Shown here piece by piece: positions 1 through 52,717 of a stretch of 64,000 bases of DNA. The notes under the pieces were generated by a model. The model was not told the origin of the DNA. It was given only the letters and a program-made list of their open reading frames with translations, and ran no database searches. This DNA is from a virus (taxonomy: Duplodnaviria; Caudoviricetes), in IMG/VR virus record IMGVR_UViG_3300037067_004901, positions 1 through 64,000 of that record. One strand, 5' to 3'. Every line of letters begins with the position of its first letter. Position 1 is the stretch's first letter. The position numbers and the translations under genes are program-made.

Positions 1-21
1 AACCAATTGAGCTACCTCTGG
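1..21 (-). tRNA. 5' fragment of a tRNA truncated by the window edge (identity unknown)
   Basis: Reverse complement CCAGAGG-TA-GCTC-AATTGGTT matches an acceptor 5' strand plus D-arm; it continues the tRNA array. Confidence 0.6.
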
Positions 22-137
22 ATGAATTTTTAAATATTCTTATTCAAATCTTTAAATCATCTACTTCTTTTTTCCACGGTTTCATCATAATTGTAAATAT
101 TATAACAGCAAAAATAATGACTATAGTTTCTTTTAAA

Positions 138-566
138 TTAAAAAAGAATCGAAATATTCGCTTCATTTTTCTCCCTTAATATCTTAATTGCTTTATCATA
201 ACGTTCACGAGCGGATTCACTTGATGTTTTATAATTATGTGCTATATCCGCAAGCTTCACATCTGTTGCTATTTTTGATTTTTTTATATTTTTAATATAA
301 TCAGAATATTTTTCCGATTTTATTCTTGTTAGTATTGATACTTCTCTAACGATTTCAAATGATATTCCCATTCTTAATAAATCTCGACTATCATAATGAC
401 TATCCTCTATAACATCATGTAATAAAGCAACACTTCTACGCAAATCATCTTTAAAATTACTTGCTACTGCTTCGCAGTGTGTTATATATGGCGTAATTTT
501 ATCATGTCTATATTGATTTCGATGCGCTCTATATGCTATCTGTCTTGCTAATCTCTCATACTTCAT
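138..566 (-). CDS. HD-domain protein, Mesh1/SpoT-like (p)ppGpp hydrolase family
   Basis: AHRNQYR..PYITH, ALLHDVIED and KLADIAHN motifs typical of small alarmone hydrolases. Confidence 0.8.
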   Translation of the reverse strand: MKYERLARQIAYRAHRNQYRHDKITPYITHCEAVASNFKDDLRRSVALLHDVIEDSHYDSRDLLRMGISFEIVREVSILTRIKSEKYSDYIKNIKKSKIATDVKLADIAHNYKTSSESARERYDKAIKILREKNEANISILF

Positions 567-587
567 TATTTCGTAATACTCCTATTT

Positions 588-662
588 TGGCGAATCCGCT
601 AGGATTCGAACCTAGGTGTTTGCTTTTGGAGAGCAACATATTAGCCACTATATGACGGACTC
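588..662 (-). tRNA. tRNA-Trp(CCA)
   Basis: Cloverleaf GAGTCCG/CGGATTC, anticodon arm TTGCT-CTCCAAA-AGCAA, T-loop TTCGAAT, encoded CCA. Confidence 0.92.
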
Positions 663-804
663 TTTCTTGTCTTTATTTTTACATTCTTCACATATATCCC
701 ATTCTACAGTTTTATTTTTATCTGGACAACGACATTGTGTTATTGTCTTTAAACATATTTTACATTTTTTAATAAAGTGCGACATATGTTCCTTTCTGTT
801 TTTT

Positions 805-896
805 TGGCGGAAACTGTAGGATTTGAACCTACGAGCCGATATTAATCGACTAATACGTTAGCAGTGTATCGCCTTCAACCACTCGGCCAAGTTTCC
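805..896 (-). tRNA. tRNA-Ser(GCT)
   Basis: Acceptor GGAAACT, loop CTGCTAA, long variable arm, GCCA end. Confidence 0.92.
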
Positions 897-897
897 A

Positions 898-1116
898 TTA
901 TTTTTCAAAACTATAATTTCTAACCCTATCAGGGTCATAATCTTCATATATAAACGTTTTAATTTTATTGCAAATACAACATTGTTTTTTTATTTTAACT
1001 AAAGCATACCCATTTTTAAATACGTTTTCAGTATTTTTTTTGCATTTAGATTTTCTTTTTAAAACTAATTCTGAATCTAAAATATTATGATAACAATGTA
1101 TTAAATGCATAAACAC
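898..1116 (-). CDS. hypothetical protein
   Basis: ORF filling the gap between tRNAs on the coding strand. Confidence 0.4.
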   Translation of the reverse strand: MFMHLIHCYHNILDSELVLKRKSKCKKNTENVFKNGYALVKIKKQCCICNKIKTFIYEDYDPDRVRNYSFEK

Positions 1117-1124
1117 CTTTTTTT

Positions 1125-1201
1125 TGGTGCGTGCGATAGGACTCGAACCTATAAGAACTTAGTTTTGAGTTAAGTATGTCTGCCAATTGCATCACACACG
1201 C
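1125..1201 (-). tRNA. tRNA-Leu(CAA), short variable loop
   Basis: Loop CTCAAAA, T-arm ATAGG-TTCGAGT-CCTAT, ACCA end. Confidence 0.88.
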
Positions 1202-1202
1202 T

Positions 1203-1289
1203 TGGTGCGCAGGGAGAGAATCGAACTCTCACGTTCTTACGAACACAGGCTTTTAAGACCTATGCGGCTGCCAATTACGCCACCCACGC
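1203..1289 (-). tRNA. tRNA-Leu(TAA)
   Basis: Loop CTTAAAA, long variable arm, ACCA end. Confidence 0.92.
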
Positions 1290-1294
1290 TTATA

Positions 1295-1582
1295 TTATGT
1301 TTTGATTAATGTATTTTTTGCTCGTTCTTCTGCTAATCTATTCTTTAAATCGTCTCTTTGCTTAATTACTTTTTTTAATTCATCTTCTAAATAAATAACT
1401 TGGGATTTTAATTCAGTATTCTCTGGTTCTTTTACACCTTTATATATGAAATCATAAATACGTGCTTTTGCAACTAAAGATTCTTGAAAGAAGCGACCCT
1501 CTCTACTTTGAACTCTTGATAATACTGATAACGCTTGTTCTAATGTTTTTATTGGTGATAATTTACTTTTATTTTCTTCCAT
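1295..1582 (-). CDS. hypothetical coiled-coil protein
   Basis: 95-aa ORF with AAGGAG RBS. Confidence 0.6.
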   Translation of the reverse strand: MEENKSKLSPIKTLEQALSVLSRVQSREGRFFQESLVAKARIYDFIYKGVKEPENTELKSQVIYLEDELKKVIKQRDDLKNRLAEERAKNTLIKT

Positions 1583-1603
1583 TCTTTCTCCTTTTTATTT
1601 AAT

Positions 1604-1688
1604 TGGTGCGGATAGAAAGATTCGAACTTTCACGCCTTACAGCATATGTTTCTAAGACATACGTGGTTGCCAATTACACCATATCCGC
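1604..1688 (-). tRNA. tRNA-Leu(TAG)
   Basis: Anticodon arm TATGT-CTTAGAA-ACATA, long variable arm, ACCA end. Confidence 0.92.
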
Positions 1689-1696
1689 GTAAATTT

Positions 1697-1790
1697 TGGC
1701 GGAAGAGATAGGACTTGCACCTATATGTCTCGTTAAAAGACAGGCAGTTTTCAAGACTGTTCCACGCACTATACTGTGGTCAACTCTTCC
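1697..1790 (-). tRNA. tRNA-Ser(TGA), atypical D-arm and T-loop
   Basis: GGAAGAG/CTCTTCC acceptor, loop CTTGAAA, long variable arm, T-loop TGCAAGT, GCCA end. Confidence 0.8.
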
Positions 1791-1800
1791 TTATATATTT

Positions 1801-1876
1801 TGGCAGATGGGGTAGGATTCGAACCTACACATTACGAATTAACAGTTCGTCTCAATACCAGTTTTGATACCCATCT
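1801..1876 (-). tRNA. tRNA-Asn(GTT)
   Basis: ACGAA-CTGTTAA-TTCGT arm, T-loop TTCGAAT, GCCA end. Confidence 0.92.
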
Positions 1877-1887
1877 ACATTAATATT

Positions 1888-1962
1888 TGGTGCTTGAATC
1901 GAGTGTCGAGTCGAATCTTCTGCGCTTCAAGCAGACGCTCTTACCATTTAAGCTATTCAAGC
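1888..1962 (-). tRNA. tRNA-Phe(GAA), degenerate T-arm
   Basis: GCTTGAA/TTCAAGC acceptor, TCTGC-TTGAAGC-GCAGA arm, ACCA end; T-arm non-canonical. Confidence 0.75.
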
Positions 1963-1963
1963 T

Positions 1964-2041
1964 TGGACGCTAGAGTGAGATTTGAACTCACGATTGTAAC
2001 GTTTTGCAGACGTTTGCAATTGTCCGCTCTGCCATCTAGCG
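1964..2041 (-). tRNA. tRNA-Cys(GCA)
   Basis: AACGT-CTGCAAA-ACGTT arm, U73 discriminator, CCA end. Confidence 0.9.
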
Positions 2042-2044
2042 CAC

Positions 2045-2130
2045 TGGTAGACTGGGCGAGACTTGAACTCACAGTGGATAACTATCCGACAGCTTAAAGG
2101 GCTGTTGCTCTACCATTGAGCGACCAGTCT
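2045..2130 (-). tRNA. tRNA-Lys(TTT) with long variable arm and C33
   Basis: AGACTGG/CCAGTCT acceptor, ACAGC-CCTTTAA-GCTGT arm, extra GGATA-GT-TATCC hairpin, ACCA end. Confidence 0.82.
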
Positions 2131-2317
2131 ATTTTAATTCTTTATATTCTTGCCATAATTTATAATGTTTACAACAACACTCACCATCTATTGATTCAAA
2201 ATAACCATCTTCCGCATCATCTGAACAAGAACAGCAACAATAAATATCTTGCTTTAATTCTTCACATCTACGTTTTTTAAATTCTTCCCAATTTTCGTTA
2301 GACATATAATTTTCCAA
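2129..2317 (-). CDS. hypothetical Cys-rich protein
   Basis: Short ORF with CCCSC and CCC; true start probably the internal MSNE. Confidence 0.4.
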   Translation of the reverse strand: MENYMSNENWEEFKKRRCEELKQDIYCCCSCSDDAEDGYFESIDGECCCKHYKLWQEYKELK

Positions 2318-2355
2318 AACAAAAGAGGCGCATCGTTTTCACTCTGCGCCTCTTT
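2316..2355 (-). terminator. intrinsic terminator (attenuator) upstream of the tRNA array
   Basis: 11-bp stem AAAGAGGCGCA/TGCGCCTCTTT followed by TGTTTT; competing strand CTGCGCCT at 2382-2389. Confidence 0.8.
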
Positions 2356-2378
2356 AATCTGTTTATGTGATATAGTTT

Positions 2379-2498
2379 TTAAGGCGCAGTTCGTTTTAGA
2401 TTTTCAAAATTTATATAGTCTGATACACTCAAAAGCCATGATAAGTGGCGTTTGCTACATAAACTCTTTACTCTAATCTCTTTGCACTTTAAAAACAT
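2379..2498 (-). CDS. putative 39-aa leader peptide MFLKCKEIRVKSLCSKRHLSWLLSVSDYINFENLKRTAP
   Basis: AAAGGA RBS; last codons ACT GCG CCT TAA coincide with the antiterminator strand. Confidence 0.65.
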   Translation of the reverse strand: MFLKCKEIRVKSLCSKRHLSWLLSVSDYINFENLKRTAP

Positions 2499-2512
2499 AT
2501 ATTATCCTTTGC

Positions 2513-2606
2513 TTATATTGGTTCTCTACATGGTTTCATTATACTGGATTTCTGTCATTGAATCTCATACAGGACCTCTCGTTGGTTTATATGGTTGATT
2601 TTTCAT
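2513..2606 (-). promoter_or_regulatory. three coupled micro-ORFs (MKNQPYKPTRGPV, MRFNDRNPV, MKPCREPI)
   Basis: ORFs at 2606-2565, 2568-2539 and 2539-2513, joined by ATGA and TAATG overlaps; AGGA RBS before the first. Confidence 0.55.
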
Positions 2607-2633
2607 ATATTCCTACTATTTAAACATCGTATA

Positions 2634-2662
2634 AGTATATCACATTTTTACCATTTTGTCAA
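2634..2662 (-). promoter_or_regulatory. sigma70 promoter of the leader/tRNA array
   Basis: TTGACA-17-TATACT with extended TG. Confidence 0.8.
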
Positions 2663-2897
2663 GTTTTTTCCCACAATTTCTACAATAATAATCTAATGTG
2701 CTTATTTCTTTTTTGCAATAATCGCATATTGGAAATTTTCTTTTTTCACGTAACATTTTTTTACCATCTTTATGACAAAAATTAGCATACGCAGATTGAT
2801 ACCCGCAACTTGGGCATATTTTGTTATGTTGTGGTAGAAAATATTTTAAATTATATTTTATATCATTAATTATTATTTTTAAAAAATTCATGCTCAT
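2640..2897 (-). CDS. double zinc-ribbon protein
   Basis: CPSC, CHKD, CDYC and CRNC motifs. Confidence 0.65.
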   Translation of the reverse strand: MSMNFLKIIINDIKYNLKYFLPQHNKICPSCGYQSAYANFCHKDGKKMLREKRKFPICDYCKKEISTLDYYCRNCGKKLDKMVKM

Positions 2898-3337
2898 TCC
2901 CTTCTATCTAATTTTTTACCAAAAAACCCGCAACCCCAATTCTGATGCCGATATACACCATCTGTGTTAAACCATGTAATTCTTTTACATGCTGGACACT
3001 CTCGCACCTCCTTCGCGTGACAATTTGGACATTCATCAACACGATACATTTCTTCCCATATACCTAAGTATGGTCTGTTCTTTAATTTTTCTTTTTCTTC
3101 AGCTATTCTTTTGTAGTCTAACGGTATTTCTGTGTTACAAAATGGACATGTTCTCCAAGAAAATTTGTATTCTTTCTTTACTTTTTTCTTTTTCTTGCGA
3201 GCAGAGCCAACACCTTTTTCAGGTATTAATGGGTCGTCTATTTTTGTATGACGTTTTGTAAATTTTCTAGGATGTCCCCAATTTCCACCGGCATACTTCT
3301 TATCTTTATTATTTATACGTCCACGAGAGGCATACAT
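2894..3337 (-). CDS. hypothetical zinc-ribbon protein
   Basis: CPFC, CPNC and CPAC motifs; basic N-terminus. Confidence 0.6.
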   Translation of the reverse strand: MYASRGRINNKDKKYAGGNWGHPRKFTKRHTKIDDPLIPEKGVGSARKKKKKVKKEYKFSWRTCPFCNTEIPLDYKRIAEEKEKLKNRPYLGIWEEMYRVDECPNCHAKEVRECPACKRITWFNTDGVYRHQNWGCGFFGKKLDRRE

Positions 3338-3497
3338 AGTTTTTTTATACCTTTTTTAAGTGGCGCATTATAATATTTCTTTAGATAGGCATCCACTCGT
3401 TTCTTTTCTGCTTTTGTAAAACATAATTCTTGAATATGTTCCTTAACACCAGTTCGTAATCTATTTCTACGTTGTTTTATCAATTCAAAACCCCCTT

Positions 3498-3830
3498 CTA
3501 ACCATTATACCACGATTCTTGTATAACACTACAAGTATCATCAATGCCTAATTGTTTTAATTGTTGTTCTATTGATTTTTTAAAAAAACCAAAAGTTTCA
3601 TAATCTTTCATTGTGGATAATTCTTTACCTACATAAACATTATCTTCATCTGGGTCAGCTACACAATATAGTTTATGTTTATTAAATAAAGTCTCTGCGA
3701 AATCATAATCTTTCGTGTCAACATTATTTTTCTTTGCTACTTCTTTTAGTTTACTTCGTTCTAAAGATACACCATAAATACAAAAACTTGTTGTACTCGA
3801 ATTACTTACAAAACCATATCGTATTTTCAT
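3498..3830 (-). CDS. GFVSNSSS-motif protein 4 (MKIRYGFVSNSSTTSF)
   Basis: Shared N-terminal motif; RBS AAAGGAG. Confidence 0.8.
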   Translation of the reverse strand: MKIRYGFVSNSSTTSFCIYGVSLERSKLKEVAKKNNVDTKDYDFAETLFNKHKLYCVADPDEDNVYVGKELSTMKDYETFGFFKKSIEQQLKQLGIDDTCSVIQESWYNG

Positions 3831-3844
3831 AATACACTCCTTTC

Positions 3845-4357
3845 TTATTCACTAAAAACTTCTCCTCTTATCTTAATGTTAGCATCGTGCGATGCAATTG
3901 TTCCAGCAATGATATGTATTAATTCTCCGAAATCACACATATCATTAAACATTATTGTCCAAGTTCGTAATTCTATTCTATTTCTTGGACATACTGTTAA
4001 TTTTATATTATTTTCTTTCAGAATAGATAATACTAACTCTTTTGCGCTCATTAAATCCATATCTTTTAAAAGTTGATTATAGTATTTCACTTTATCTTCT
4101 GATTCTTTTAACCATATTTTATGTAATTCAAGACGATTTTTATCTTTTGCTTCTTTAATTTCTGAACGTGTTTCTTTTACAAATTTTTCTTGCATTTCTA
4201 TTTGTTTTTTTATAAAACATGTAAACCCTCGCTTCGAGAATATACTATATGTAAAATCTGCAAGCATATTTTGTACAAATTCTTCAAAATCAATTCCTAA
4301 AGTCAAAACATAACTTGCACTGCTACTATTGCTTACAAAACCATGTCTGATTTTCAT
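3845..4357 (-). CDS. GFVSNSSS-motif protein 3 (MKIRHGFVSNSSSASY)
   Basis: Shared N-terminal motif; RBS AAGGAG. Confidence 0.8.
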   Translation of the reverse strand: MKIRHGFVSNSSSASYVLTLGIDFEEFVQNMLADFTYSIFSKRGFTCFIKKQIEMQEKFVKETRSEIKEAKDKNRLELHKIWLKESEDKVKYYNQLLKDMDLMSAKELVLSILKENNIKLTVCPRNRIELRTWTIMFNDMCDFGELIHIIAGTIASHDANIKIRGEVFSE

Positions 4358-4367
4358 TTTATTCTCC

Positions 4368-4730
4368 TTATCCTAAATGTACACGTTTAGCATTAAACAC
4401 ATCAGATATTAAATCGAATATTTCATAAGGTATTGAATTATCATCCGCACTGTTGACGAGTATTAAGTCTTTCTTATATCCTATCTTTGAATTCCAACCT
4501 TCATTTAAATATCGTATAGCTTCTTTATCAGCTATTCTCGGTTCTTGAAAAATGTCTTCAAACTTTGCGTTTGAGTCGATAATCCCCATTGCTTTAACAA
4601 AATCAAATATTTGATGTGTTTTCTTGATAACTTCATCGAGTGTTACTTTTTTCCTGCCTTCATACATATTCACATTACAAACAAAACTACTTGAACTACT
4701 GTTACTGACAAATCCTAATCTAGTTTTCAT
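4368..4730 (-). CDS. GFVSNSSS-motif protein 2 (MKTRLGFVSNSSSSSF)
   Basis: Start re-assigned to the internal ATG at 4730, which overlaps the upstream stop (TAATG). Confidence 0.8.
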   Translation of the reverse strand: MKTRLGFVSNSSSSSFVCNVNMYEGRKKVTLDEVIKKTHQIFDFVKAMGIIDSNAKFEDIFQEPRIADKEAIRYLNEGWNSKIGYKKDLILVNSADDNSIPYEIFDLISDVFNAKRVHLG

Positions 4731-5038
4731 TAGCGCCCTCTCGTTCCATATATTATTTTTATATCTTCTTTTTTTAAACCACATTCTTCAATTGTTTTAA
4801 TAGCTTCTTTTGTTGCTAAATCAATATCTATTGCACCACACTCTAAATAATCTTCGTTATTATTATCCATAATGACTTTACCTAAAAAACCAGGTCCATA
4901 ACTATCACTTAAATAATTATTGCCATTATCTAATAAGTTTTTGTCTATCTTTTCATATTGTAATTTATTTAATGAAACACCAATAATAACAAAAGATGAA
5001 GAACTTGAATTACTTACGAATCCCATCCGAACTTTCAT
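4730..5038 (-). CDS. GFVSNSSS-motif protein 1 (MKVRMGFVSNSSSSSF)
   Basis: Shared N-terminal motif; RBS AAGGAG. Confidence 0.8.
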   Translation of the reverse strand: MKVRMGFVSNSSSSSFVIIGVSLNKLQYEKIDKNLLDNGNNYLSDSYGPGFLGKVIMDNNNEDYLECGAIDIDLATKEAIKTIEECGLKKEDIKIIYGTRGR

Positions 5039-5696
5039 TTGTTTTCTCCTTTTGTAACTTCATTTTTTTATAATATGGATTATTTTTTCCTTTTAAATAT
5101 TTATTTATATATTTTTGTTTTTCTTTTTTAGAAACATTATTCATCCAACATTTATTTTTAAGTTGTTTTTTATTTAATTTACTTTGATAATTATTTTTGC
5201 CTCTTAAATTTTTATTTAACCAATTTTCACGTTCTTCTATTGACATTTTATTTAAATAATGATTTTTCCCACTAATAATAGAATTATTATAATTTGGATT
5301 ATTTTTTCCTAATCTATATTTTTTCATCCATTGTTTCTTTTTATTTTTTCCCATCCTATTTAAATAATGAAATTCCCCCTTACATCCAAAATTATTATCT
5401 CCACCAACAGTAAGATTATATCCATATTTTTTATTTAACGGTGCATATGTTTTTAATTTTTTGATATAATATTTTTCCAGTTTGTTTAATTCACTTATCT
5501 TGCATATCCTTATATAATCAAATGTAAAATTATGAAATCCATATTTTTTGATAGCATAATCAAACCCTATTTTTGCAATTTTTGAGTGTCGTAAATGCCA
5601 CTTAATTCTTGTTTCTAAATTATGTATAGTTTGCCCTATATATTTTTTATTATTTATTTTATTAACTGCTAAATATATTATTCCTTTTCTATTCAT
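5010..5696 (-). CDS. GIY-YIG homing endonuclease with NUMOD-like repeats
   Basis: GIIY..NKINNKKYIGQT, E..YI, GYNLTVGG; repeated GKNNPxY motifs. Confidence 0.85.
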   Translation of the reverse strand: MNRKGIIYLAVNKINNKKYIGQTIHNLETRIKWHLRHSKIAKIGFDYAIKKYGFHNFTFDYIRICKISELNKLEKYYIKKLKTYAPLNKKYGYNLTVGGDNNFGCKGEFHYLNRMGKNKKKQWMKKYRLGKNNPNYNNSIISGKNHYLNKMSIEERENWLNKNLRGKNNYQSKLNKKQLKNKCWMNNVSKKEKQKYINKYLKGKNNPYYKKMKLQKEKTNESSDGIRK

Positions 5697-6747
5697 TGCT
5701 ACCTATTTTAAATAAAATACAATTTCTATTATTATTTAATAATTTATTTCTAAATTCATTTGTTTTCTTTCCGCGCCAAATATTTGCAAGAAAATGTCTT
5801 GTTTTTAACACATCAATACCTTTTTCCCAATTTATTTCATTTTCACAAAAACTACATGGAAAGAACATACCATCTACATTTATATAACCAGAAAATAAAC
5901 ATGATTCACATGGTTCTGCCATTTTTTCTAATGATTTATAATCTATTCTATCTTTTATAGCTCTTAAAAACATGTTACAACCACAACTATCAAATCCGAT
6001 TCTTACATTATTTGTAAAAGCATAATCTACTAATTTTTTATATTTATCCAGTGAAGTTAATTGATGTAATTTATTTCGCTTACCTTTGGGTTTAAGCCAT
6101 AAGAAAACGATTGCGTTTAACTTTTCAAGACGTTTATCTTCTTTTGATAATTTCATTAATTCAAAACATTTATCATATGTTTCCTCGCAAAGAAGTGCGT
6201 GTATATTAACTTGCTTCATATTTCTATCTGTTAATTTTTGCACAGCATTGAAACAAGTTTCAAAACCATAATTGCTAACAGCAACAGCACCGCATAATCT
6301 CGCAAGATTGTCTGCGTATTCATCAGTAAGATTATCCCCATTTATTGTAATATTAGGTATTATTTTATTATCTCTGCAAAATTGCATTATCTTAAATAAG
6401 TCGGGATTTGCAGAAATATCACCGATACCAAACGCCGCCTGCGTGAGTGTGTCGGGGAATTTTTTAAACAGTTCAACAAATGTTGAATAAGACATATTTT
6501 TACCTTTAGCTGTATTCGATTTATAACACCAATTACAAGCACGAGAACAGATGCTTGATAATTCTATATCCAGTATCTCTGGGCCTATAGCACTATATTG
6601 TGGGTCGTCATTTAAAGTAGCACCAAAACGGATAAAAACTCCGTTTGTTCTATTAAAAGAATAATTATAATTGTGTGATTTTAATAACTTTATTTCTTCA
6701 CCCTTTTTATTCTTTGTTTCTGCAATCGAATACGCTATCATCTTCAT
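5689..6747 (-). CDS. radical SAM protein with C-terminal SPASM/twitch-like cysteines
   Basis: CSRACNWC (CX3CX2C); C-terminal PCES...YINVDG.FFPCSFC...RNC. Confidence 0.9.
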   Translation of the reverse strand: MKMIAYSIAETKNKKGEEIKLLKSHNYNYSFNRTNGVFIRFGATLNDDPQYSAIGPEILDIELSSICSRACNWCYKSNTAKGKNMSYSTFVELFKKFPDTLTQAAFGIGDISANPDLFKIMQFCRDNKIIPNITINGDNLTDEYADNLARLCGAVAVSNYGFETCFNAVQKLTDRNMKQVNIHALLCEETYDKCFELMKLSKEDKRLEKLNAIVFLWLKPKGKRNKLHQLTSLDKYKKLVDYAFTNNVRIGFDSCGCNMFLRAIKDRIDYKSLEKMAEPCESCLFSGYINVDGMFFPCSFCENEINWEKGIDVLKTRHFLANIWRGKKTNEFRNKLLNNNRNCILFKIGSNE

Positions 6748-11923: not shown

Positions 11924-11952
11924 AGTATATCATATTACGATGAAATTGTCAA
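11924..11952 (-). promoter_or_regulatory. sigma70 promoter
   Basis: TTGACA-17-TATACT with extended TG. Confidence 0.75.
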
Positions 11953-14391: not shown

Positions 14392-15657
14392 TTAATCTCC
14401 TTTAATAACTGCGAGTGGCTGAAGTTCTGTAATAATTTCTACCAAATCTGATTGATTATTCATAACATCTGTTATATCTCTATATGCACCACTTGCTTCA
14501 TCTAAATTATTTATAGAACGAAGACCATGTACAATACCTTGTGCATCTAATTTATTTTGTTCATCTATAAGATTTAATACTTTGCGTGCTTTGCTTCTAC
14601 TCATTATTCTACCTGCACCATGAGAGCAAGAGTTAAAACTTTCAGCATTGCCAAGACCGCGCACTATATATGATTTACGTCCTTGGTCGCCAGGTATAAT
14701 ACCAATCGTATTTTTAGTTGCAAGAGTTGCACCTTTACGATGTATCATAACGTTCTTACCGAAATGATTCTCCATCTTTGCGTAGTTATGCGCTATGTTA
14801 ATCATAGCTTCACTCATATCGGAAGTAATAACTGGAAATTTTTCACTACCAAATATGACAGCAAATATATTTAAAATTTTATTCATCATCAATTTTCTAT
14901 TAGCCAATGCAAAGTCAATGCAATATTGCATTTCTCTTATATATGCTTTACCTTCATCGCTATCTATTGTTAGAAATGCTAATGATTGTTCCATATCTTT
15001 TGGTAAATATGTATTTGAATGCCACTCTTTATTTAGTTCATATGCTACTTTATTATAATGTTTCGCTACTGTATAACCTATATTACGACTGCCTGAATGA
15101 ATCATAATCCAAACATTATCGTATTTATCTTTCTGTATCTCTATAAAATGATTGCCACCGCCAAGAGTTCCAAGTTGACGCAACGCAGATTGATATTCTT
15201 GATACACTATTGGATACATACACTGAAAATCAAATGGTTTACTTTCTGCGCAACTTCTTTCAGGCATTAACTTTTCATCTTGCGCATCTTTATTATGTTC
15301 CTTACCAACTGGTATTGTTTCTCGTATCTTACCCATTATAGTCTTGATTATTTCTTCGCTCAAATCTTTTGCTTTAAGAGAAGTCTTAACAGCACACATA
15401 CCACAACCAATATCAACACCAACTGCATTTGGAACTATCACTCTATCTGTTGCGAGAACAGCACCAATCGGCATACCATATCCACTATGACAATCTGGCA
15501 TTATCGCTATATGATGAAACGCGAAAGGTAAACAAGATAAATTCATTATTTGATTTTTTGCTTCATCTTCTATTTTATCCCAGTCTAACCAAAGTTTCAC
15601 TGGAACTTTTACAGCTTTACTATCTTTACTTATCCCTGTCACATCAATAACTTTCAT
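14392..15657 (-). CDS. rtcB: RNA ligase RtcB
   Basis: MPDCHSGYG, VGVDIGCG, GTLGGGNHFIE, HSGSR, HNY, HRKGA, SHGAGR. Confidence 0.95.
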   Translation of the reverse strand: MKVIDVTGISKDSKAVKVPVKLWLDWDKIEDEAKNQIMNLSCLPFAFHHIAIMPDCHSGYGMPIGAVLATDRVIVPNAVGVDIGCGMCAVKTSLKAKDLSEEIIKTIMGKIRETIPVGKEHNKDAQDEKLMPERSCAESKPFDFQCMYPIVYQEYQSALRQLGTLGGGNHFIEIQKDKYDNVWIMIHSGSRNIGYTVAKHYNKVAYELNKEWHSNTYLPKDMEQSLAFLTIDSDEGKAYIREMQYCIDFALANRKLMMNKILNIFAVIFGSEKFPVITSDMSEAMINIAHNYAKMENHFGKNVMIHRKGATLATKNTIGIIPGDQGRKSYIVRGLGNAESFNSCSHGAGRIMSRSKARKVLNLIDEQNKLDAQGIVHGLRSINNLDEASGAYRDITDVMNNQSDLVEIITELQPLAVIKGD

Positions 15658-30509: not shown

Positions 30510-30757
30510 TGTAGTCTCCTTTAATTAAAAATCGGTGAGTGTCAGCATTTTATCAACAAGACCTACCTCAGAGGTAATTGACATACTTGATTTTTACTCA
30601 CCGCACTTCATAATTTTGCTACTTGTTATATAAATAAATATAGTTTTAATTATATTTTTTTATATCACATAATAAACCTCCTTGTTATATATGTATAAAC
30701 AAAAATCGAGACTTGCTTTCCTGTCACAAAGCTTATCTCGAATTATTGATATATGTT

Positions 30758-30785
30758 AGTATATCATATCGCAAAGTAATGTCAA
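30758..30785 (-). promoter_or_regulatory. sigma70 promoter
   Basis: TTGACA-16-TATACT with extended TG. Confidence 0.65.
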
Positions 30786-43137: not shown

Positions 43138-43166
43138 TTGACAAGTGTATAGTATTATGATATACT
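43138..43166 (+). promoter_or_regulatory. sigma70 promoter
   Basis: TTGACA-17-TATACT with extended TG. Confidence 0.8.
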
Positions 43167-43172
43167 TCTATA

Positions 43173-43482
43173 TGTAAGCAGAGAGTTTTGCGACTTCTCT
43201 TGTTTACTCATGGTTATCGGTTGTGTTGATTACGAAAAGTAGGATAATAGTGTAAACTATGTAATTATGAGCGTAAAATTCTACATTGAACGGCGTAGTT
43301 GCTCGTAACGTGCTTACCAACACAACTCGTGTTTCGCGCAGAGTGGACATCGTGTTCACTCGCTTTCGAAGAAGAAGAAGCTGAGAATAGAAAGTGTTGA
43401 AGTTGATTCCTCCTTCACGAGTATATTTTCAGTTTCTTCTTCTTTTTTTCTGGTCAACCTTTTACATTAACCGATATAGCCA
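43173..43482 (+). ncRNA. putative ~310-nt structured ncRNA
   Basis: Starts just after a consensus promoter, has no ORF, and contains nested helices (TATCGGTT/AACCGATA, GTTGTGTTG/CAACACAAC, GAGTGGAC/GTTCACTC, GAAGAAGAAGCTGAGAATA/TATTTTCAGTTTCTTCTTC). Confidence 0.6.
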
Positions 43483-46569: not shown

Positions 46570-46598
46570 TTGACAAAAACGATTTTATATGATATACT
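46570..46598 (+). promoter_or_regulatory. sigma70 promoter heading the rightward arm
   Basis: TTGACA-17-TATACT with extended TG. Confidence 0.8.
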
Positions 46599-46629
46599 TT
46601 ACACGAAAATAAAAGAAAGGAGTTTATGA

Positions 46630-46935
46630 ATGCATAGAGATTATGTTTATTATGGACACGATGCACAGATAGATGTGTCAAATGGGGTTTTTCAAAATCC
46701 TTTTTCAGTAGAAAGTGAAATTGTACATATACACGACAATCCAGATAACATGCGCGCGAGAAGCAAGTATCAAAAAACAAGTAACATAGCAAAATTCTCA
46801 TCTACAGCAACACTTACAATTGCTGATTTAGAAGAAGCAAAACGACGCATATCATCTGTTGAATCATCAGAAATTCCAATTGCACCAATACGTTTTATTA
46901 ATTCTTATTCTATTACAGGCGGTGCTAGCTCATGA
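46630..46935 (+). CDS. hypothetical protein
   Basis: AAAGGAG RBS directly after the promoter. Confidence 0.55.
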   Translation: MHRDYVYYGHDAQIDVSNGVFQNPFSVESEIVHIHDNPDNMRARSKYQKTSNIAKFSSTATLTIADLEEAKRRISSVESSEIPIAPIRFINSYSITGGASS

Positions 46936-46999
46936 GTTCTAGCGTCATATCATATATATATTATATTTCGCGCTAGAAAGCATCGCCTTTTTAAATTAT

Positions 47000-47075
47000 T
47001 GCGGGATGGACAAGTGGTTAAGTCGATTGGCTCATAACCAATATATCATGGGTTCAAATCCCATTCCCGCTACCA
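47000..47075 (+). tRNA. tRNA-Met(CAT), initiator-like
   Basis: ATTGG-CTCATAA-CCAAT arm, 1:72 mismatch, ACCA end. Confidence 0.88.
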
Positions 47076-47381
47076 ATTTGTCGCTGTGTGTCACGCACTA
47101 GAACGCACGATGTTTTTGCTACTCATCGTAGTTATAAATCATAGACCCAATGATACATATGTTTAATCATGTAGATGTGTATATCTGAAGCACAGACTTG
47201 AAGATATCTAGAGCGACGATTATTTGGGTGCGACAACTTTGCCCAGCTATTTAGTTGTTGTATGTATGATTATCTCGATAAGAGCATATACCCGTCAAAT
47301 AGCTATGGTATACGCGCGGCGGCGTGGAATCGCGTTGAGCATTGAGACACGCATTTTAAAAATAAGAAAGGAGATTTTTGA

Positions 47382-49010
<1,629 letters not shown>

Positions 49011-49041
49011 AATTTTTTTATAGATAAGGAGACTTTTTTTA

Positions 49042-49869
49042 ATGCAAGTCGTTGATTTATCAAAAAAACAAGAATTAGAAAAATTTGATGTTAAAGTAAG
49101 CGAAGAACTTATTGTAGCGATAAGTCAATACAAGAGTATTGATTATACAAAATCGGCTATAGAAGCATTAAAGAAAGAGGGCGTTAAGTTTACAACGCTC
49201 ATTTTGTTTGATGGTAGTTCTGATGAAGATTATGAGAAAATTCAGAATCTTGCTGATATAAGCATTCGAATAAAGAAACGGATAAATAGCTTACCACAAA
49301 TATGGAACATCATGTTTGGCGCAGCCAAGCTCACCGCGGCTAAATATTTGTATTGGCAAGGTTCTGATATGTTATTAAACGAGCATGGTTTAGAAAATAT
49401 GCTCATGACTATGAAGTTAGGTTATGACGCAGTAAGTCCAATTAAAATTGATAATGATGTTGAAAGATTTAAAAATTATAAAAGAGTTTATAATCGCGTA
49501 ATGCGATGTGCTGGTATAAATGATAGCGCATGTCTATTTCGTTTAGATAAGCTAGACTTTTTTTGTTTTGATGAAATGTATGCGCCGTATCAATTCGAGA
49601 CAAGCGCGTTGGGTTATGCGCTGTTTCGTAAAAAATGCAGAATGTGCATAGATGATAACGCTGTCATATTACATTATTGCAGTAAAGATATAGAGCATAG
49701 CCCAAAAGAGCGTGAAATCGGAAGTAAAACTTGGGATATGAAGCGCGATTATTTTTTAAAAGACGCAAGTGAAGATAAGAGATGGTTCTTTGAAAAATCT
49801 ATAATGAACAGCGAAATCGTAAAAGATATTGGGTTCCCAGCGCATATTTATTTAGGAGACCCAAAATGA
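49042..49869 (+). CDS. GT-A (family 2-like) glycosyltransferase
   Basis: LILFDGSSD, WN, SD, SACLFR, FDE.Y pattern. Confidence 0.6.
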   Translation: MQVVDLSKKQELEKFDVKVSEELIVAISQYKSIDYTKSAIEALKKEGVKFTTLILFDGSSDEDYEKIQNLADISIRIKKRINSLPQIWNIMFGAAKLTAAKYLYWQGSDMLLNEHGLENMLMTMKLGYDAVSPIKIDNDVERFKNYKRVYNRVMRCAGINDSACLFRLDKLDFFCFDEMYAPYQFETSALGYALFRKKCRMCIDDNAVILHYCSKDIEHSPKEREIGSKTWDMKRDYFLKDASEDKRWFFEKSIMNSEIVKDIGFPAHIYLGDPK

Positions 49870-50924
49870 ACATACTAGTTTGTGTCGGAGCAAGTGAACC
49901 GAGTTATACGAGTAGCAAGAGTTTTATTAGAGCGTTAAAACGCGCTGGGTATGATGTCAGAACGTGTGGTGCATATTATAAATACGATAGAGAACGCACA
50001 GAACAAGTCGATTTTGAATTAGAAGACAAATGTTTTCCAGAATTATATACATATGAAGAAGTATTAAAAAGCACTAAAGATTTTAAAGCAGATATTATAT
50101 TACAAATAGAACCACATTTTTATTTATGTGGGGAAAAACCAAAAGATATAAAAAGTTATTATTGGATTCTAGACCCACATCGAGGTGGTTATGCATACAG
50201 AAATCTTGCTAAACAAGGTGATTTTAATGCATTGTTTATGTCGCAAACTTATTTTTCTGATAGTTATTTAGAATTTGCAAAAAAAATTTATTTCTTTCCA
50301 CAAGCAGTAGATATAGATAGAATTAAATATGATGAAAACATTAAAGCAGAATGCGACATCGCGTTTATCGGTGAAACAGGCATTGCAGATAGATGCATGA
50401 GATACGACAAACGAGATGCAGATAATTATGAATATACGAATTTAATTAATGATAATTATATATTAGATTCAGAAATATATAAAGATTACGCAGAAAGAGC
50501 GAAATTGTTAATGTTGTTATCTCGTGGCTTTGATGTTCGTATATATAAAAAGAATTTTAATACAGATTATTCTAAAATAATACAAAAAGGTAAAATTGCT
50601 TTTCATCGTAGTTTATTTAAAGATATAACATTGCGAAATTTTGAATCTTTAGCTTTAAAGCGTGCGCTTGTATGCGATTACGTACCGAATCTAGAAAAGT
50701 TGATGATAAACTATAAGCATTGTCTTATGTATAAAGCTTTTGGATTCAATACAGAACTTGAAAACTTTAAACTTGATTATGAACAGGCGAAAGAAGCTGT
50801 TGACATTTTGCTAAAAGATGATAAAATGAGAAATGATATTGCAGAGAATGCGTATCAACATGTTATGAAATATCATACTTTTGATAATCGCGTTAAAGAA
50901 ATGATGAGCGTTATTACGGGATAG
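49866..50924 (+). CDS. CgeB-like GT-B glycosyltransferase
   Basis: YWILDPH, PQAVD, DIAFIG, LRNFE, IAENAY..V...HTFDNRV. Confidence 0.8.
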   Translation: MNILVCVGASEPSYTSSKSFIRALKRAGYDVRTCGAYYKYDRERTEQVDFELEDKCFPELYTYEEVLKSTKDFKADIILQIEPHFYLCGEKPKDIKSYYWILDPHRGGYAYRNLAKQGDFNALFMSQTYFSDSYLEFAKKIYFFPQAVDIDRIKYDENIKAECDIAFIGETGIADRCMRYDKRDADNYEYTNLINDNYILDSEIYKDYAERAKLLMLLSRGFDVRIYKKNFNTDYSKIIQKGKIAFHRSLFKDITLRNFESLALKRALVCDYVPNLEKLMINYKHCLMYKAFGFNTELENFKLDYEQAKEAVDILLKDDKMRNDIAENAYQHVMKYHTFDNRVKEMMSVITG

Positions 50925-51005
50925 GGTAATTGGTAGCCCAGCAGACTTTGAATCTGCCAGAACAAAATAGTTCGCGTGGAAGTTCGAATCTTTCTCCCGT
51001 AACCA
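50915..51005 (+). tRNA. tRNA-Gln(TTG) with long variable arm
   Basis: TACGGGA/TCCCGTA acceptor, GCAGA-CTTTGAA-TCTGC arm, extra GAAC-AAAATA-GTTC hairpin, ACCA end. Confidence 0.85.
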
Positions 51006-51443
51006 AAAAAGATAGGAGAGAATGATATGTATAAAGTAACAATAAAACTAAAGAACGTTGATTCTGTAGTTTATGATGATGTAGAAGATTATGATATTGA
51101 CGAAGTTACTATAGATTTAAGCATTGGTGAAAATAGGAAAATAATTTTTCCTCTTATTAATGTAGAATCAGTAGATATAGCAAAGTTAGATGAATCTTAA
51201 AAAAATGAAGATTATTTTAAGAAACGAGAATATAGAACAGATGAGAAAGCGTCACGAAAAAGAAATCGAGACGCTTCAGAAGAAATGTAAACATAAAGAA
51301 ATTAGTGACTGGATGGAGTATCATTTTGCAATTGGTCACTTTTCGCATTATGTAAAAGTTTGTAAATATTGTGGTAAAATTATAAAAGAAGATAAACCGA
51401 AATTCGTAACACATAATATAGGATTTGAAAAAGCAGTTAAATT

Positions 51444-51520
51444 GGGGGATTAGTAGCTAACTGGGAAAACATGTGCTTTGCAAGCATGAATTATCGGTTC
51501 GAATCCGATATCCTCCACCA
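51444..51520 (+). tRNA. tRNA-Ala(TGC)
   Basis: G3:U70 pair, loop TTTGCAA, ACCA end. Confidence 0.92.
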
Positions 51521-51708
51521 AAAAAAGGAGTGAAAGAAAGTGAAAAAAGCAAATAAGACGATACGACGCGAAAAAATAGCAGTAATCAATGCATGGATGA
51601 ATAAATTCCCATGTAAAAATTATTTTAAATATCAAGATGGCGGTTGTATTCATGACCGTATTAATGCACGCGAAATATATAATTTTATAGAAGCAAAATT
51701 TAGATAAT

Positions 51709-51785
51709 CAGGACGTGGGCTAGTTTGGTAAGTCACTCGGCCTGGGACCGAGTAATCGCTGGTTCAAATCCAGCCGTCCTGACCA
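51709..51785 (+). tRNA. tRNA-Pro(TGG) with C33
   Basis: CAGGACG/CGTCCTG acceptor, CTCGG-CCTGGGA-CCGAG arm, ACCA end. Confidence 0.88.
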
Positions 51786-51876
51786 ATTTTAATAGAGATA
51801 ATATGATTGAAATATGCGAGTTGTGTAAAGAATGTCCATATAAGAATATTTGTACTGAAACAGATAAATATGTGGA

Positions 51877-52218
51877 GTGTATATGACAGATGAAGAAATA
51901 TTACAAAAAGTAATCATCAAAGCAGAGAAGAATGGGTATAAAGGTCATATGCAGTATCTTCCCATGTTTCTCAAACGAGACCCAAGTAAAAAGAAAAAAC
52001 TTTCTAAAAAAGATTTCATGAAGTTTATGTCTCGTATTTGGTTTATTCATAAGAACGATATAATTTACTCACACGAATTTGCAAAAGCGTTTTTTGGTGA
52101 AAAAAAACATATGGAGTGTTGTGGGTCATTAGGTAATAATTTAAAAGAATATCAATATTACTTAATGTGGTTAGTTAAAATTCCACACCCTATAATAGAA
52201 CTGGAAAAATTTTTATGA
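51877..52218 (+). CDS. hypothetical phage protein
   Basis: MTDEEILQKVI.KAEKNGY...IIYSHEFAKAFFGE. Confidence 0.6.
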   Translation: MYMTDEEILQKVIIKAEKNGYKGHMQYLPMFLKRDPSKKKKLSKKDFMKFMSRIWFIHKNDIIYSHEFAKAFFGEKKHMECCGSLGNNLKEYQYYLMWLVKIPHPIIELEKFL

Positions 52219-52322
52219 CAATAAAAACTGTAATAAAGAATGGTAAAATTGTAATTAAAGATAAACATATCACACATAGACCAAAAAAATCACCGTGTGG
52301 TCAAAGAGTTAAAAAAATATGA

Positions 52323-52399
52323 GCGCGGTTTGTGTTAATGTTCGAGCATGTCAGTCTTCCAAACTGAAGGGGAGAGTTAAAGTCTCTCACCGCGCACCA
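52323..52399 (+). tRNA. tRNA-Gly(TCC)
   Basis: GCGCGGT/ACCGCGC acceptor, TCAGT-CTTCCAA-ACTGA arm, ACCA end. Confidence 0.88.
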
Positions 52400-52642
52400 A
52401 AATTATGAAACTATTAACATTATTTTCTATATCTATAACATTAATTAGTTTTCAGTTCGGATTTTTCTTTATCCAACAGCAACACAATGAATATAAGATG
52501 AATGATATTTTGAATTATTGTGAAAAAGTTAAGGATAAACTTGATATCAGTATTATAGATGAGCAAATTACAAGAAAAGAAGCTCAAATTTATATTAAAT
52601 CAATACAAAAAGATATAGAACGTAATAGTGTAATAAAAAAAC

Positions 52643-52717
52643 GCCCGCATAGCTTAGTTGGTAAAGCAGTAGTTTTGTAAACTTCAGACAGCCGTTCGAT
52701 TCGACTTGTGGGCTCCA
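52643..52717 (+). tRNA. tRNA-Thr(TGT)
   Basis: GCCCGCA/TGTGGGC acceptor, loop TTTGTAA, CCA end; some stem mismatches. Confidence 0.82.

Follow-up and report, generated by a model that had tools for sequence, protein, structure and literature searches.

A possible leader-peptide attenuator at the head of a tRNA array in an uncultured groundwater phage

We analyzed a window of 64,000 nucleotides from the virus record IMGVR_UViG_3300037067_004901, the first 64 kb of the 105.5-kb contig of an uncultured groundwater phage; the contig is non-circular and incomplete. On the minus strand, between positions 2662 and 2312, a leader region precedes an array of tRNA genes. All of the structural features of a leader-peptide attenuator that can be looked for in silico were predicted there: a promoter, an open reading frame (ORF) of 39 codons with a Shine–Dalgarno (SD) sequence (hereafter ORF39), an intrinsic terminator, an antiterminator, and an overlap of the antiterminator with the end of the ORF. 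We tentatively read the locus, with somewhat less than even confidence, as a ribosome-operated transcription attenuator heading a compact operon of a small gene and a tRNA array. This is a single-locus prediction and thus a candidate for bench tests, not an established finding.

Promoter, leader ORF and terminator

The promoter of the leader matched the sigma-70/sigmaA consensus at 11 of 12 positions, carried a TG-type extended −10 element, and was the top-scoring site within 6 kb (coordinates of all features are given in Table 1). The TGA of the extended −10 element is also the stop codon of an upstream 85-aa ORF. Transcription was predicted to start at about 2627, and the leader, U tract included, would be about 311 nt long. 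The terminator combines a perfect 11-bp stem, a 12-nt loop and a U tract; at −20.8 kcal/mol, it ranks in the top three of the 105-kb contig. The promoter, the ORF with its closing codons ACT GCG CCT TAA, and the terminator downstream of it had been pointed out in an initial annotation of this DNA, and all three were recovered. The duplex of the ORF39 ribosome-binding site with the anti-SD sequence (−6.3 kcal/mol) equals the median of the phage genes and is equalled by 5.4% of other ATGs in the genome. ORF39 is a candidate leader peptide and may be translated.

Alternative pairing and folding of the leader RNA

The last codons of ORF39 (CTGCGCCT, 2389–2382, also written CUGCGCCU) are an exact 8-nt complement of the 5′ arm of the terminator (AGGCGCAG, 2351–2344), as had been claimed for this locus. 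The helix grows to 9 bp (2389–2381/2352–2344), the final U–G pair using the first base of the stop codon. Duplexes at least this stable (−17.6 kcal/mol) formed in 5 of 3000 dinucleotide shuffles of the 146 nt upstream and in 2 of 596 genomic windows paired with the same arm; none of the eight other terminator-like hairpins of the genome had a significant upstream complement (p 0.08–0.93). The heptamer TGCGCCT is present at five sites in the 105 kb, counting both strands, and three of these are at the leader locus. The pairing between ORF39 and the terminator is beyond chance.

A third helix competes with these two. ORF39 lies in a long irregular hairpin (2502–2370; −33.8 kcal/mol, z −4.35, with none of 200 shuffles as stable). 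At the base of this hairpin the start-codon region pairs with the stop-codon region, and seven of the nine antiterminator bases are sequestered; bases 2388–2370 of segment 1 thus have segment 0 as their alternative partner. When the growing transcript was folded stepwise, a check that the initial annotation had proposed, the structure switched successively from the start–end hairpin to the antiterminator (transcript 3′ end at 2344–2335) and then to the terminator (3′ end at or below 2330).

The effect of a translating ribosome was modeled with a footprint of −12 to +15 nt around the P site. The antiterminator probability was 0.93–0.98 with the P site at codons 1–31 and 0.00 with the P site at codon 34 or beyond and at the stop codon. 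In this model the position of the ribosome selects the structure because the end of ORF39 overlaps the antiterminator strand, so that the dependence is one of geometry only; swift translation to the end of ORF39 is therefore predicted to give termination, and a lagging ribosome, read-through. The folding is of the equilibrium kind and, on its own, is undecided between terminator and antiterminator.

Genes behind the terminator

At least 10 tRNA genes were found downstream, as first annotated, although they do not directly follow the terminator as had been stated: ORF58, the first gene that would be gated, lies between, and small ORFs are interspersed among the tRNA genes. Eight tRNA genes were detected by ARAGORN, and Rfam added tRNA-Phe(GAA) and tRNA-Ser(UGA). 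The array appears to depend on read-through, because its intergenic gaps are just 1–21 nt long and it holds no promoter-like site above 9/12; the check for an independent promoter downstream of 2316, also proposed at the outset, covered the minus strand of the region below that position. ORF58 and the tRNA block look like a single transcription unit whose expression requires read-through of the terminator. Since the terminator scan found no other strong minus-strand terminator between the promoter at 11952 and position 2355, the 2355–2312 terminator is probably encountered also by polymerases that come from the early operon upstream.

Two of the tRNA genes are unusual. The tRNA-Lys(UUU) is 86 nt long and has a long extra arm, unusual for a lysine tRNA, and the one model that the tRNA-Ser(UGA) (1701–1790) matches is that of tRNA-Sec, with a score under the threshold of that model.

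Table 1. Features of the leader locus, the tRNA array and related sites; positions are those of the window unless the contig is named
Feature	Position	Strand	Description
Sigma-70/sigmaA-type promoter	2634–2662	−	TTGACA (2662–2657), 17 nt, TG-a-TATACT (2639–2634)
Micro-ORF 1	2606–2565	−	MKNQPYKPTRGPV-stop; ends RGPV-stop
Micro-ORF 2	2568–2539	−	MRFNDRNPV-stop; ends RNPV-stop
Micro-ORF 3	2539–2513	−	MKPCREPI-stop; ends REPI-stop
SD sequence of ORF39	2505–2510	−	AAAGGA; 6 nt before AUG, just outside the long hairpin
ORF39, candidate leader peptide	2498–2379	−	MFLKCKEIRVKSLCSKRHLSWLLSVSDYINFENLKRTAP-stop; 39 codons including stop; ends ACT GCG CCT TAA
Segment 0, candidate anti-antiterminator	2483–2502	−	ORF39 start, AUAUA-U-GUUUUUAA-A-GUGCA; pairs with 2388–2370
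Segment 1, ORF39 end	2370–2389	−	Antiterminator strand CUGCGCCUU (2389–2381, including U of UAA)
Segment 2, terminator 5′ arm	2344–2355	−	AAAGAGGCGCAG; common to antiterminator (2352–2344) and terminator (2355–2345)
Segment 3, terminator 3′ arm	2332–2322, region to 2312	−	UGCGCCUCUUU; leads into tract UCUUUUGUUUUGG
Intrinsic terminator	2355–2312	−	Stem AAAGAGGCGCA (2355–2345)/TGCGCCTCTTT (2332–2322), TGTTTTGG tail
ORF58	2305–2129 (ATG)	−	Cys-rich, 58 aa; 62 aa from TTG 2317; first gated gene (predicted); stop abuts tRNA-Lys
tRNA-Lys(UUU)	2130–2045	−	
tRNA-Cys(GCA)	2041–1964	−	
tRNA-Phe(GAA)	1962–1891	−	Rfam only; missed by ARAGORN
tRNA-Asn(GUU)	1876–1801	−	
tRNA-Ser(UGA)	1790–1701	−	Missed by ARAGORN
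tRNA-Leu(UAG)	1688–1604	−	Followed by ORF95
tRNA-Leu(UAA)	1289–1203	−	
tRNA-Leu(CAA)	1201–1125	−	Followed by ORF72
tRNA-Ser(GCU)	896–805	−	Followed by ORF45
tRNA-Trp(CCA)	662–588	−	
HD_4 protein	566–138	−	Last gene before the truncated tRNA
Truncated tRNA	20–1	−	Array runs off the contig end
RtcB RNA ligase	14392–15657	−	Same arm as the first tRNA array
Sister promoter family	2662, 11952, 30785	−	Shared consensus
Sister promoter family	43138, 46570, 53626; contig 73437	+	Shared consensus
Promoter-proximal terminator hairpin	30741–30706	−	After sister promoter
Promoter-proximal terminator hairpin	Contig 73507–73543	+	After sister promoter
Head of second tRNA region	46570–47075	+	Consensus promoter, 101-aa ORF (46630–46935), hairpin, tRNA-Met

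Codon composition of ORF39

The codons of ORF39 cover all ten complete downstream tRNAs, as had been claimed. The accompanying caveat, that some coverage is expected by chance, holds, but full coverage is rarer than was assumed (0.3–2%). It was observed in 0.28% of 38-codon windows of phage genes and 0.17% of random draws from the codon usage, and in 0.4–2% of spurious short ORFs and 1.6% of composition-random ORFs. Codons cognate to these tRNAs make up 22 of the 38 in ORF39 vs. 33.5% genome-wide (p 0.006 against genes and about 0.03 against spurious ORFs). This mirror of the array, noticed post hoc, is suggestive. It is due in part to the AU-rich hairpin, and it is incomplete, as the array leaves the contig.

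Proposed mechanism

In the model that we propose, a polymerase, whether it starts at about 2627 or comes in from the early operon upstream, would have to pass 2355–2312 to transcribe ORF58 and at least 10 tRNA genes. The antiterminator, formed over 9 bp by the last codons and stop of ORF39 with the terminator 5′ arm, would be transcribed ahead of the terminator. A ribosome that keeps pace and stands on codons 34–39 or on the stop codon would cover the antiterminator strand, so that the terminator would form and transcription would end; with a ribosome delayed in about codons 1–32, the antiterminator would form and the polymerase would continue into the tRNA genes. If no ribosome loads, the start–end helix may work kinetically, as an anti-antiterminator. 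Both the coupling of transcription and translation at the leader and the regulated read-through at the terminator are, as far as we infer, parts of this scheme.

The signal would most likely be the general speed of decoding. It may include a shortage of exactly the tRNAs of the downstream array, because ORF39 is rich in codons read by them. A more specific version, in which tRNAs would be supplied on demand, appears doubtful to us: ORF39 would be a test track in Lys, Cys, Phe, Asn, Ser, Leu, and Trp codons, and cleavage or depletion of host tRNAs, for example by anticodon nucleases, would make the ribosome lag and switch the array on. The RtcB ligase of the phage offers circumstantial support for such a tRNA-depletion trigger; if the version were true, on-demand tRNAs and RtcB would together form a self-regulating counter-defence circuit.

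Upstream micro-ORFs

The initial annotation described the leader as containing the 39-codon ORF and overlooked three further micro-ORFs upstream of it (2606–2513). The micro-ORFs overlap and are coupled via AUGA and UAAUG junctions. Each of them closes a 26-nt unit with AGA-NNN-CCN-RTA-TRA (R-x-P-V/I-stop); this motif had three matches in the 64 kb, all within 2513–2606, vs. 0.12 expected. The units vary solely where Arg, Pro, Val/Ile, and the stop stay unchanged, which suggests selection on the peptide ends and possibly slow termination. The C-terminus of ORF39 itself reads RTAP-stop. Tandem Repeats Finder reported no tandem repeat within 2300–2700; the 26-nt periodicity shows up solely in the form of a degenerate motif. 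Over the 120 nt that precede the ORF39 hairpin and carry the micro-ORFs, the RNA was unstructured (z −1.0).

Relatives and strain variation

The search for relatives of the locus gave little. A blastn search of positions 1–6000 against 50,697 GenBank phage records returned tRNA matches only, and a protein search of IMG/VR with the 147-aa, 58-aa, and 352-aa neighbors found no relatives. The 147-aa neighbor had eight homologues of at most 52% identity among 5.8 billion proteins. The search for homologues of ORF58 found only the protein itself, ORF39 was not present in the source protein collection, and its neighbors there are singleton clusters. The 352-aa radical SAM neighbor was of no use for synteny because its only matches were in T4-like enterobacterial phages at about 41% identity. 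Two pattern scans of JGI metagenome contigs found nothing, and a scan of positions 1–4000 with Rfam, at E-values up to 1, gave tRNA and chance plastid matches only and no cis-regulatory family, T-box included.

For ORF39, a HMMER search of 1.84 billion representatives returned a single marginal match (E 6e-5, 640 aa, no aligned stretch), which we regard as noise and reject. A three-part motif DNA pattern had 21 matches in IMG/VR, on contigs of 45–70% GC that were unrelated to the locus by blastn.

The contig sequence is present in two metagenomes, one from groundwater and one from landfill, and these supplied a second strain; no RNA run containing the stretch was among the sequencing runs listed. 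The comparison spans 2404–2514 only; the strain is about 89% identical there and diverges upstream of 2514. All eight listed differences fit the 2502–2370 hairpin: five are unpaired, and the three in stems stay paired (C–G to U–G, G–U to A–U, and C–G to U–G), a pattern with an estimated p of about 0.03–0.05. The conserved feature looks like the RNA structure rather than the peptide. The mosaic boundary at 2514 lies precisely at the junction of the micro-ORF and ORF39 modules.

Sister promoters and genome context

Seven near-identical strong promoters, including that of the leader, were found in the 105-kb contig (cTTGACAA-N13-T(A/G)TG-n-TATACT). All are oriented with the local genes, and several head RNA genes or long leaders instead of ordinary genes. 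The two promoter-proximal terminators (30706–30741 and contig 73507–73543) are followed by genes, of which one is SpoVG-like and the other has a GGAGG site. The leader at 30785 has a second terminator-like hairpin at about 30604–30530, which is entered by a 19-codon ORF.

The contig has a G+C content of about 31%, with minus-strand genes to about 44 kb and plus-strand genes beyond. Its genes encode, among others, RtcB, GroEL, a clamp loader, an HD_4 protein, and a PHROG "RNA-binding protein" (phrog_850), and their ribosome-binding sites are of the AAAGGAGG type. This type and the promoter consensus suggest a host that may be Firmicute-like. The HD_4 (RelA/SpoT-like hydrolase) protein encoded within the tRNA array (138–566, minus strand) and RtcB resemble a translation-repair set like the array-linked one of Anabaena.

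A 72-nt two-tier hairpin followed by U5 (46917–46995) lies directly before tRNA-Met at the head of the second tRNA region, and it had no significant antiterminator. The 101-aa ORF ends inside the 5′ half of this hairpin, so translation to its stop would melt the hairpin, a logic opposite to that of ORF39.

Alternative explanations

The trp/his-type attenuator reading of the initial annotation fits the anatomy, including the third competing helix and the gene-like SD sequence, but it applies to a single locus without homologues, and the following observations weigh against it. A related locus was absent from the GenBank phage collection, IMG/VR, and the JGI metagenome contigs, and the seven contigs that carry homologues of the 147-aa neighbor had no syntenic leader or tRNA head. 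ORF39 was missed by the gene caller of the source collection, and in the second strain its peptide has three radical changes (K6S, R17C, L22R) beside three silent ones. Against spurious short ORFs, the codon mirror has only p 0.004–0.03, and it is post hoc. The second tRNA array (47000–52717) has no comparable switch, so an on-demand logic would not be general within the phage.

The energetics also leave the switch to kinetics. At the equilibrium without a ribosome, the antiterminator (0.93) wins over the start–end helix (0.05), so any role of the long hairpin as an anti-antiterminator would have to be kinetic. At equilibrium the finished terminator is in every case the most stable structure, as it is in trp; therefore, the decision would be kinetic, and the logic of the switch would rest on kinetics.

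Two further points bear on particular alternatives. The direct repeat AAAACGA-N0-2-TGCGCCT occurs twice, at the ORF39 end and in the 3′ half of the terminator; its AAAACGA part is superfluous for the pairing, and this surplus suggests that the stretch was duplicated locally or binds a factor. At the sister promoters 30785 (minus strand) and contig 73437 (plus strand), terminators follow within 45–75 nt with no leader ORF ahead. These bare pairs hint at a general read-through mechanism, and the phage may use promoter-proximal terminators generally, with factor-dependent read-through.

The most probable of the alternatives, though we hold it to be rather unlikely, is an ordinary terminator. The structure at 2355–2312 would end the roughly 9-kb upstream early operon as well as a 311-nt early transcript of the promoter at 2662, which would be a structured small RNA or the mRNA of a small protein; the array would be expressed by constitutive leakage or with a phage antitermination factor of the lambda N/Q style, and the complement in ORF39 would be left over from a local duplication of the 3′ half of the terminator. 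Besides the repeat being longer than the pairing needs and the bare promoter–terminator pairs, it is favored by the third sister promoter, which makes a non-coding RNA of about 300 nt with its own terminator (43138–43443), by the lack of ORF39 homologues and of peptide conservation between the strains, and by the strong structure of the ORF39 region (z −4.35), as expected of a small RNA. However, a GC-rich complement of 9 bp is rare in a genome of 31% GC (p about 0.002) and unique among the terminators of the phage; it would be a further coincidence for this complement to lie precisely beneath the stop codon of an ORF that has an SD sequence, and an unconstrained relic should decay. No antitermination factor or nut/QBE-like element was identified. 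A boxA/nut-like reading of CGCCUUAAAAA was dropped, no similar element being present in other leaders.

It is less probable still that a trans-acting factor, an RNA or an RNA-binding protein of phage or host, sets the switch in the manner of TRAP, PyrR, or LicT, through AAAACGA-UGCGCCU or the 26-nt units. The alternative pairing would be retained in such a scheme, consistent with its statistical significance; the 14-nt element stands twice, in the antiterminator strand and in the terminator loop with the 3′ arm, and the three tandem 26-nt units share an invariant AGA..CC..TA.T.A core found nowhere else in the 64 kb. The variation of these units keeps Arg, Pro, Val/Ile, and the stop, which argues for selection on peptides over an RNA site; no candidate binding protein was identified, and the Rfam scan described above had no cis-regulatory match.

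Control of leader stability or folding by an antisense RNA across ORF39, from TTTATGTGATATAGT on the plus strand (2362–2376), is highly improbable: this copy of the phage extended −10 element, a weak antisense promoter or a chance occurrence, lies in the antiterminator loop, matches 15 of 17 nt of the extended −10 region of promoter 73437 and is part of a 12/13-nt inverted match between the −10 region of the leader promoter (2633–2645) and 2365–2377, but such a match within 450 AT-rich bases is by estimate close to chance, GCCTCT occupies the expected place of the −35 element, and no plus-strand gene or terminator follows downstream.

Comparison with known systems

Leader-peptide attenuators are best known from amino-acid operons, such as those with E. 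coli trpL, hisL, leuL, thrL, and ilvL. The phage locus shares with the trpL/hisL class a promoter, an ORF with an SD sequence, a terminator whose 5′ arm has an alternative partner at the ORF end, and an extra upstream helix; the predicted outcome likewise depends on the position of the lead ribosome. It differs from this class in that tRNAs and small ORFs, not biosynthetic enzymes, would be controlled, in that ORF39, instead of a run of a single codon, has a wide range of the codons served by the downstream tRNAs and spans the entire first hairpin, and in that the equilibrium without a ribosome favors read-through, not super-attenuation. The leader has neither sequence homology to this class nor a match to an Rfam leader family.

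Ribosome-stalling attenuators are also known from the resistance genes bmrCD, vmlR, and lmo0919. In the Gram-positive resistance attenuators, as in our model of the phage leader, a leader peptide and a terminator/antiterminator pair sense slow ribosomes, and the output relieves a translation problem; the promoter type of the phage (TRTG extended −10) and its SD sequences fit the kind of host in which they occur. The inducer of the resistance attenuators is a ribosome-bound drug acting with a specific arrest peptide, whereas the phage leader has no established arrest motif and its output is tRNA. The mef(E)/mel system is a ribosome-stalling attenuator of this Gram-positive group (PMC4335068).

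T-box riboswitches of Firmicutes also choose between terminator and antiterminator according to tRNA status; they read uncharged tRNA by RNA–RNA contact and need no ORF, and no T-box match was present in positions 1–4000 of the phage. In phage lambda, promoter-proximal terminators (pR′-tR′, nut sites) are overcome by N or Q. The strong promoter followed by a strong terminator within a few hundred bases is common to the lambda type and the phage leader, and two sister promoters share the bare layout; unlike in lambda, neither a Q- or N-like protein nor an element for its binding was identified, and the antiterminator overlapping an ORF has no lambda counterpart.

In Anabaena PCC 7120, the otherwise silent trn L-array is induced by impaired translation and shares its regulation with rtcB (PMC8421152; PMC10272220). 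It resembles the phage locus as a spare tRNA array with a link to RtcB, but it lies on a cellular megaplasmid, and its control is through promoter repeats and the TrcR repressor instead of attenuation (PMC8421152; PMC10272220); PMC8421152 contains none of the terms "attenuat-", "terminator", and "leader peptide". The tRNA arrays of phages are seen as counter-measures to tRNA-cleaving defences (PMC10264068, PMC11555353), and the papers on phage tRNAs in counter-defence that our analysis covered made no mention of regulated expression. The control of phage tRNA array expression has hardly been studied, and our literature search found no published leader-peptide attenuator ahead of tRNA genes. 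Judged from its anatomy, the locus could be a known attenuator class in a new setting, with tRNA as the output, a view that we favor only provisionally. If it is true, the logic of trp attenuation, the oldest bacterial regulatory logic, would extend to the translation machinery itself and form a compact feedback loop.

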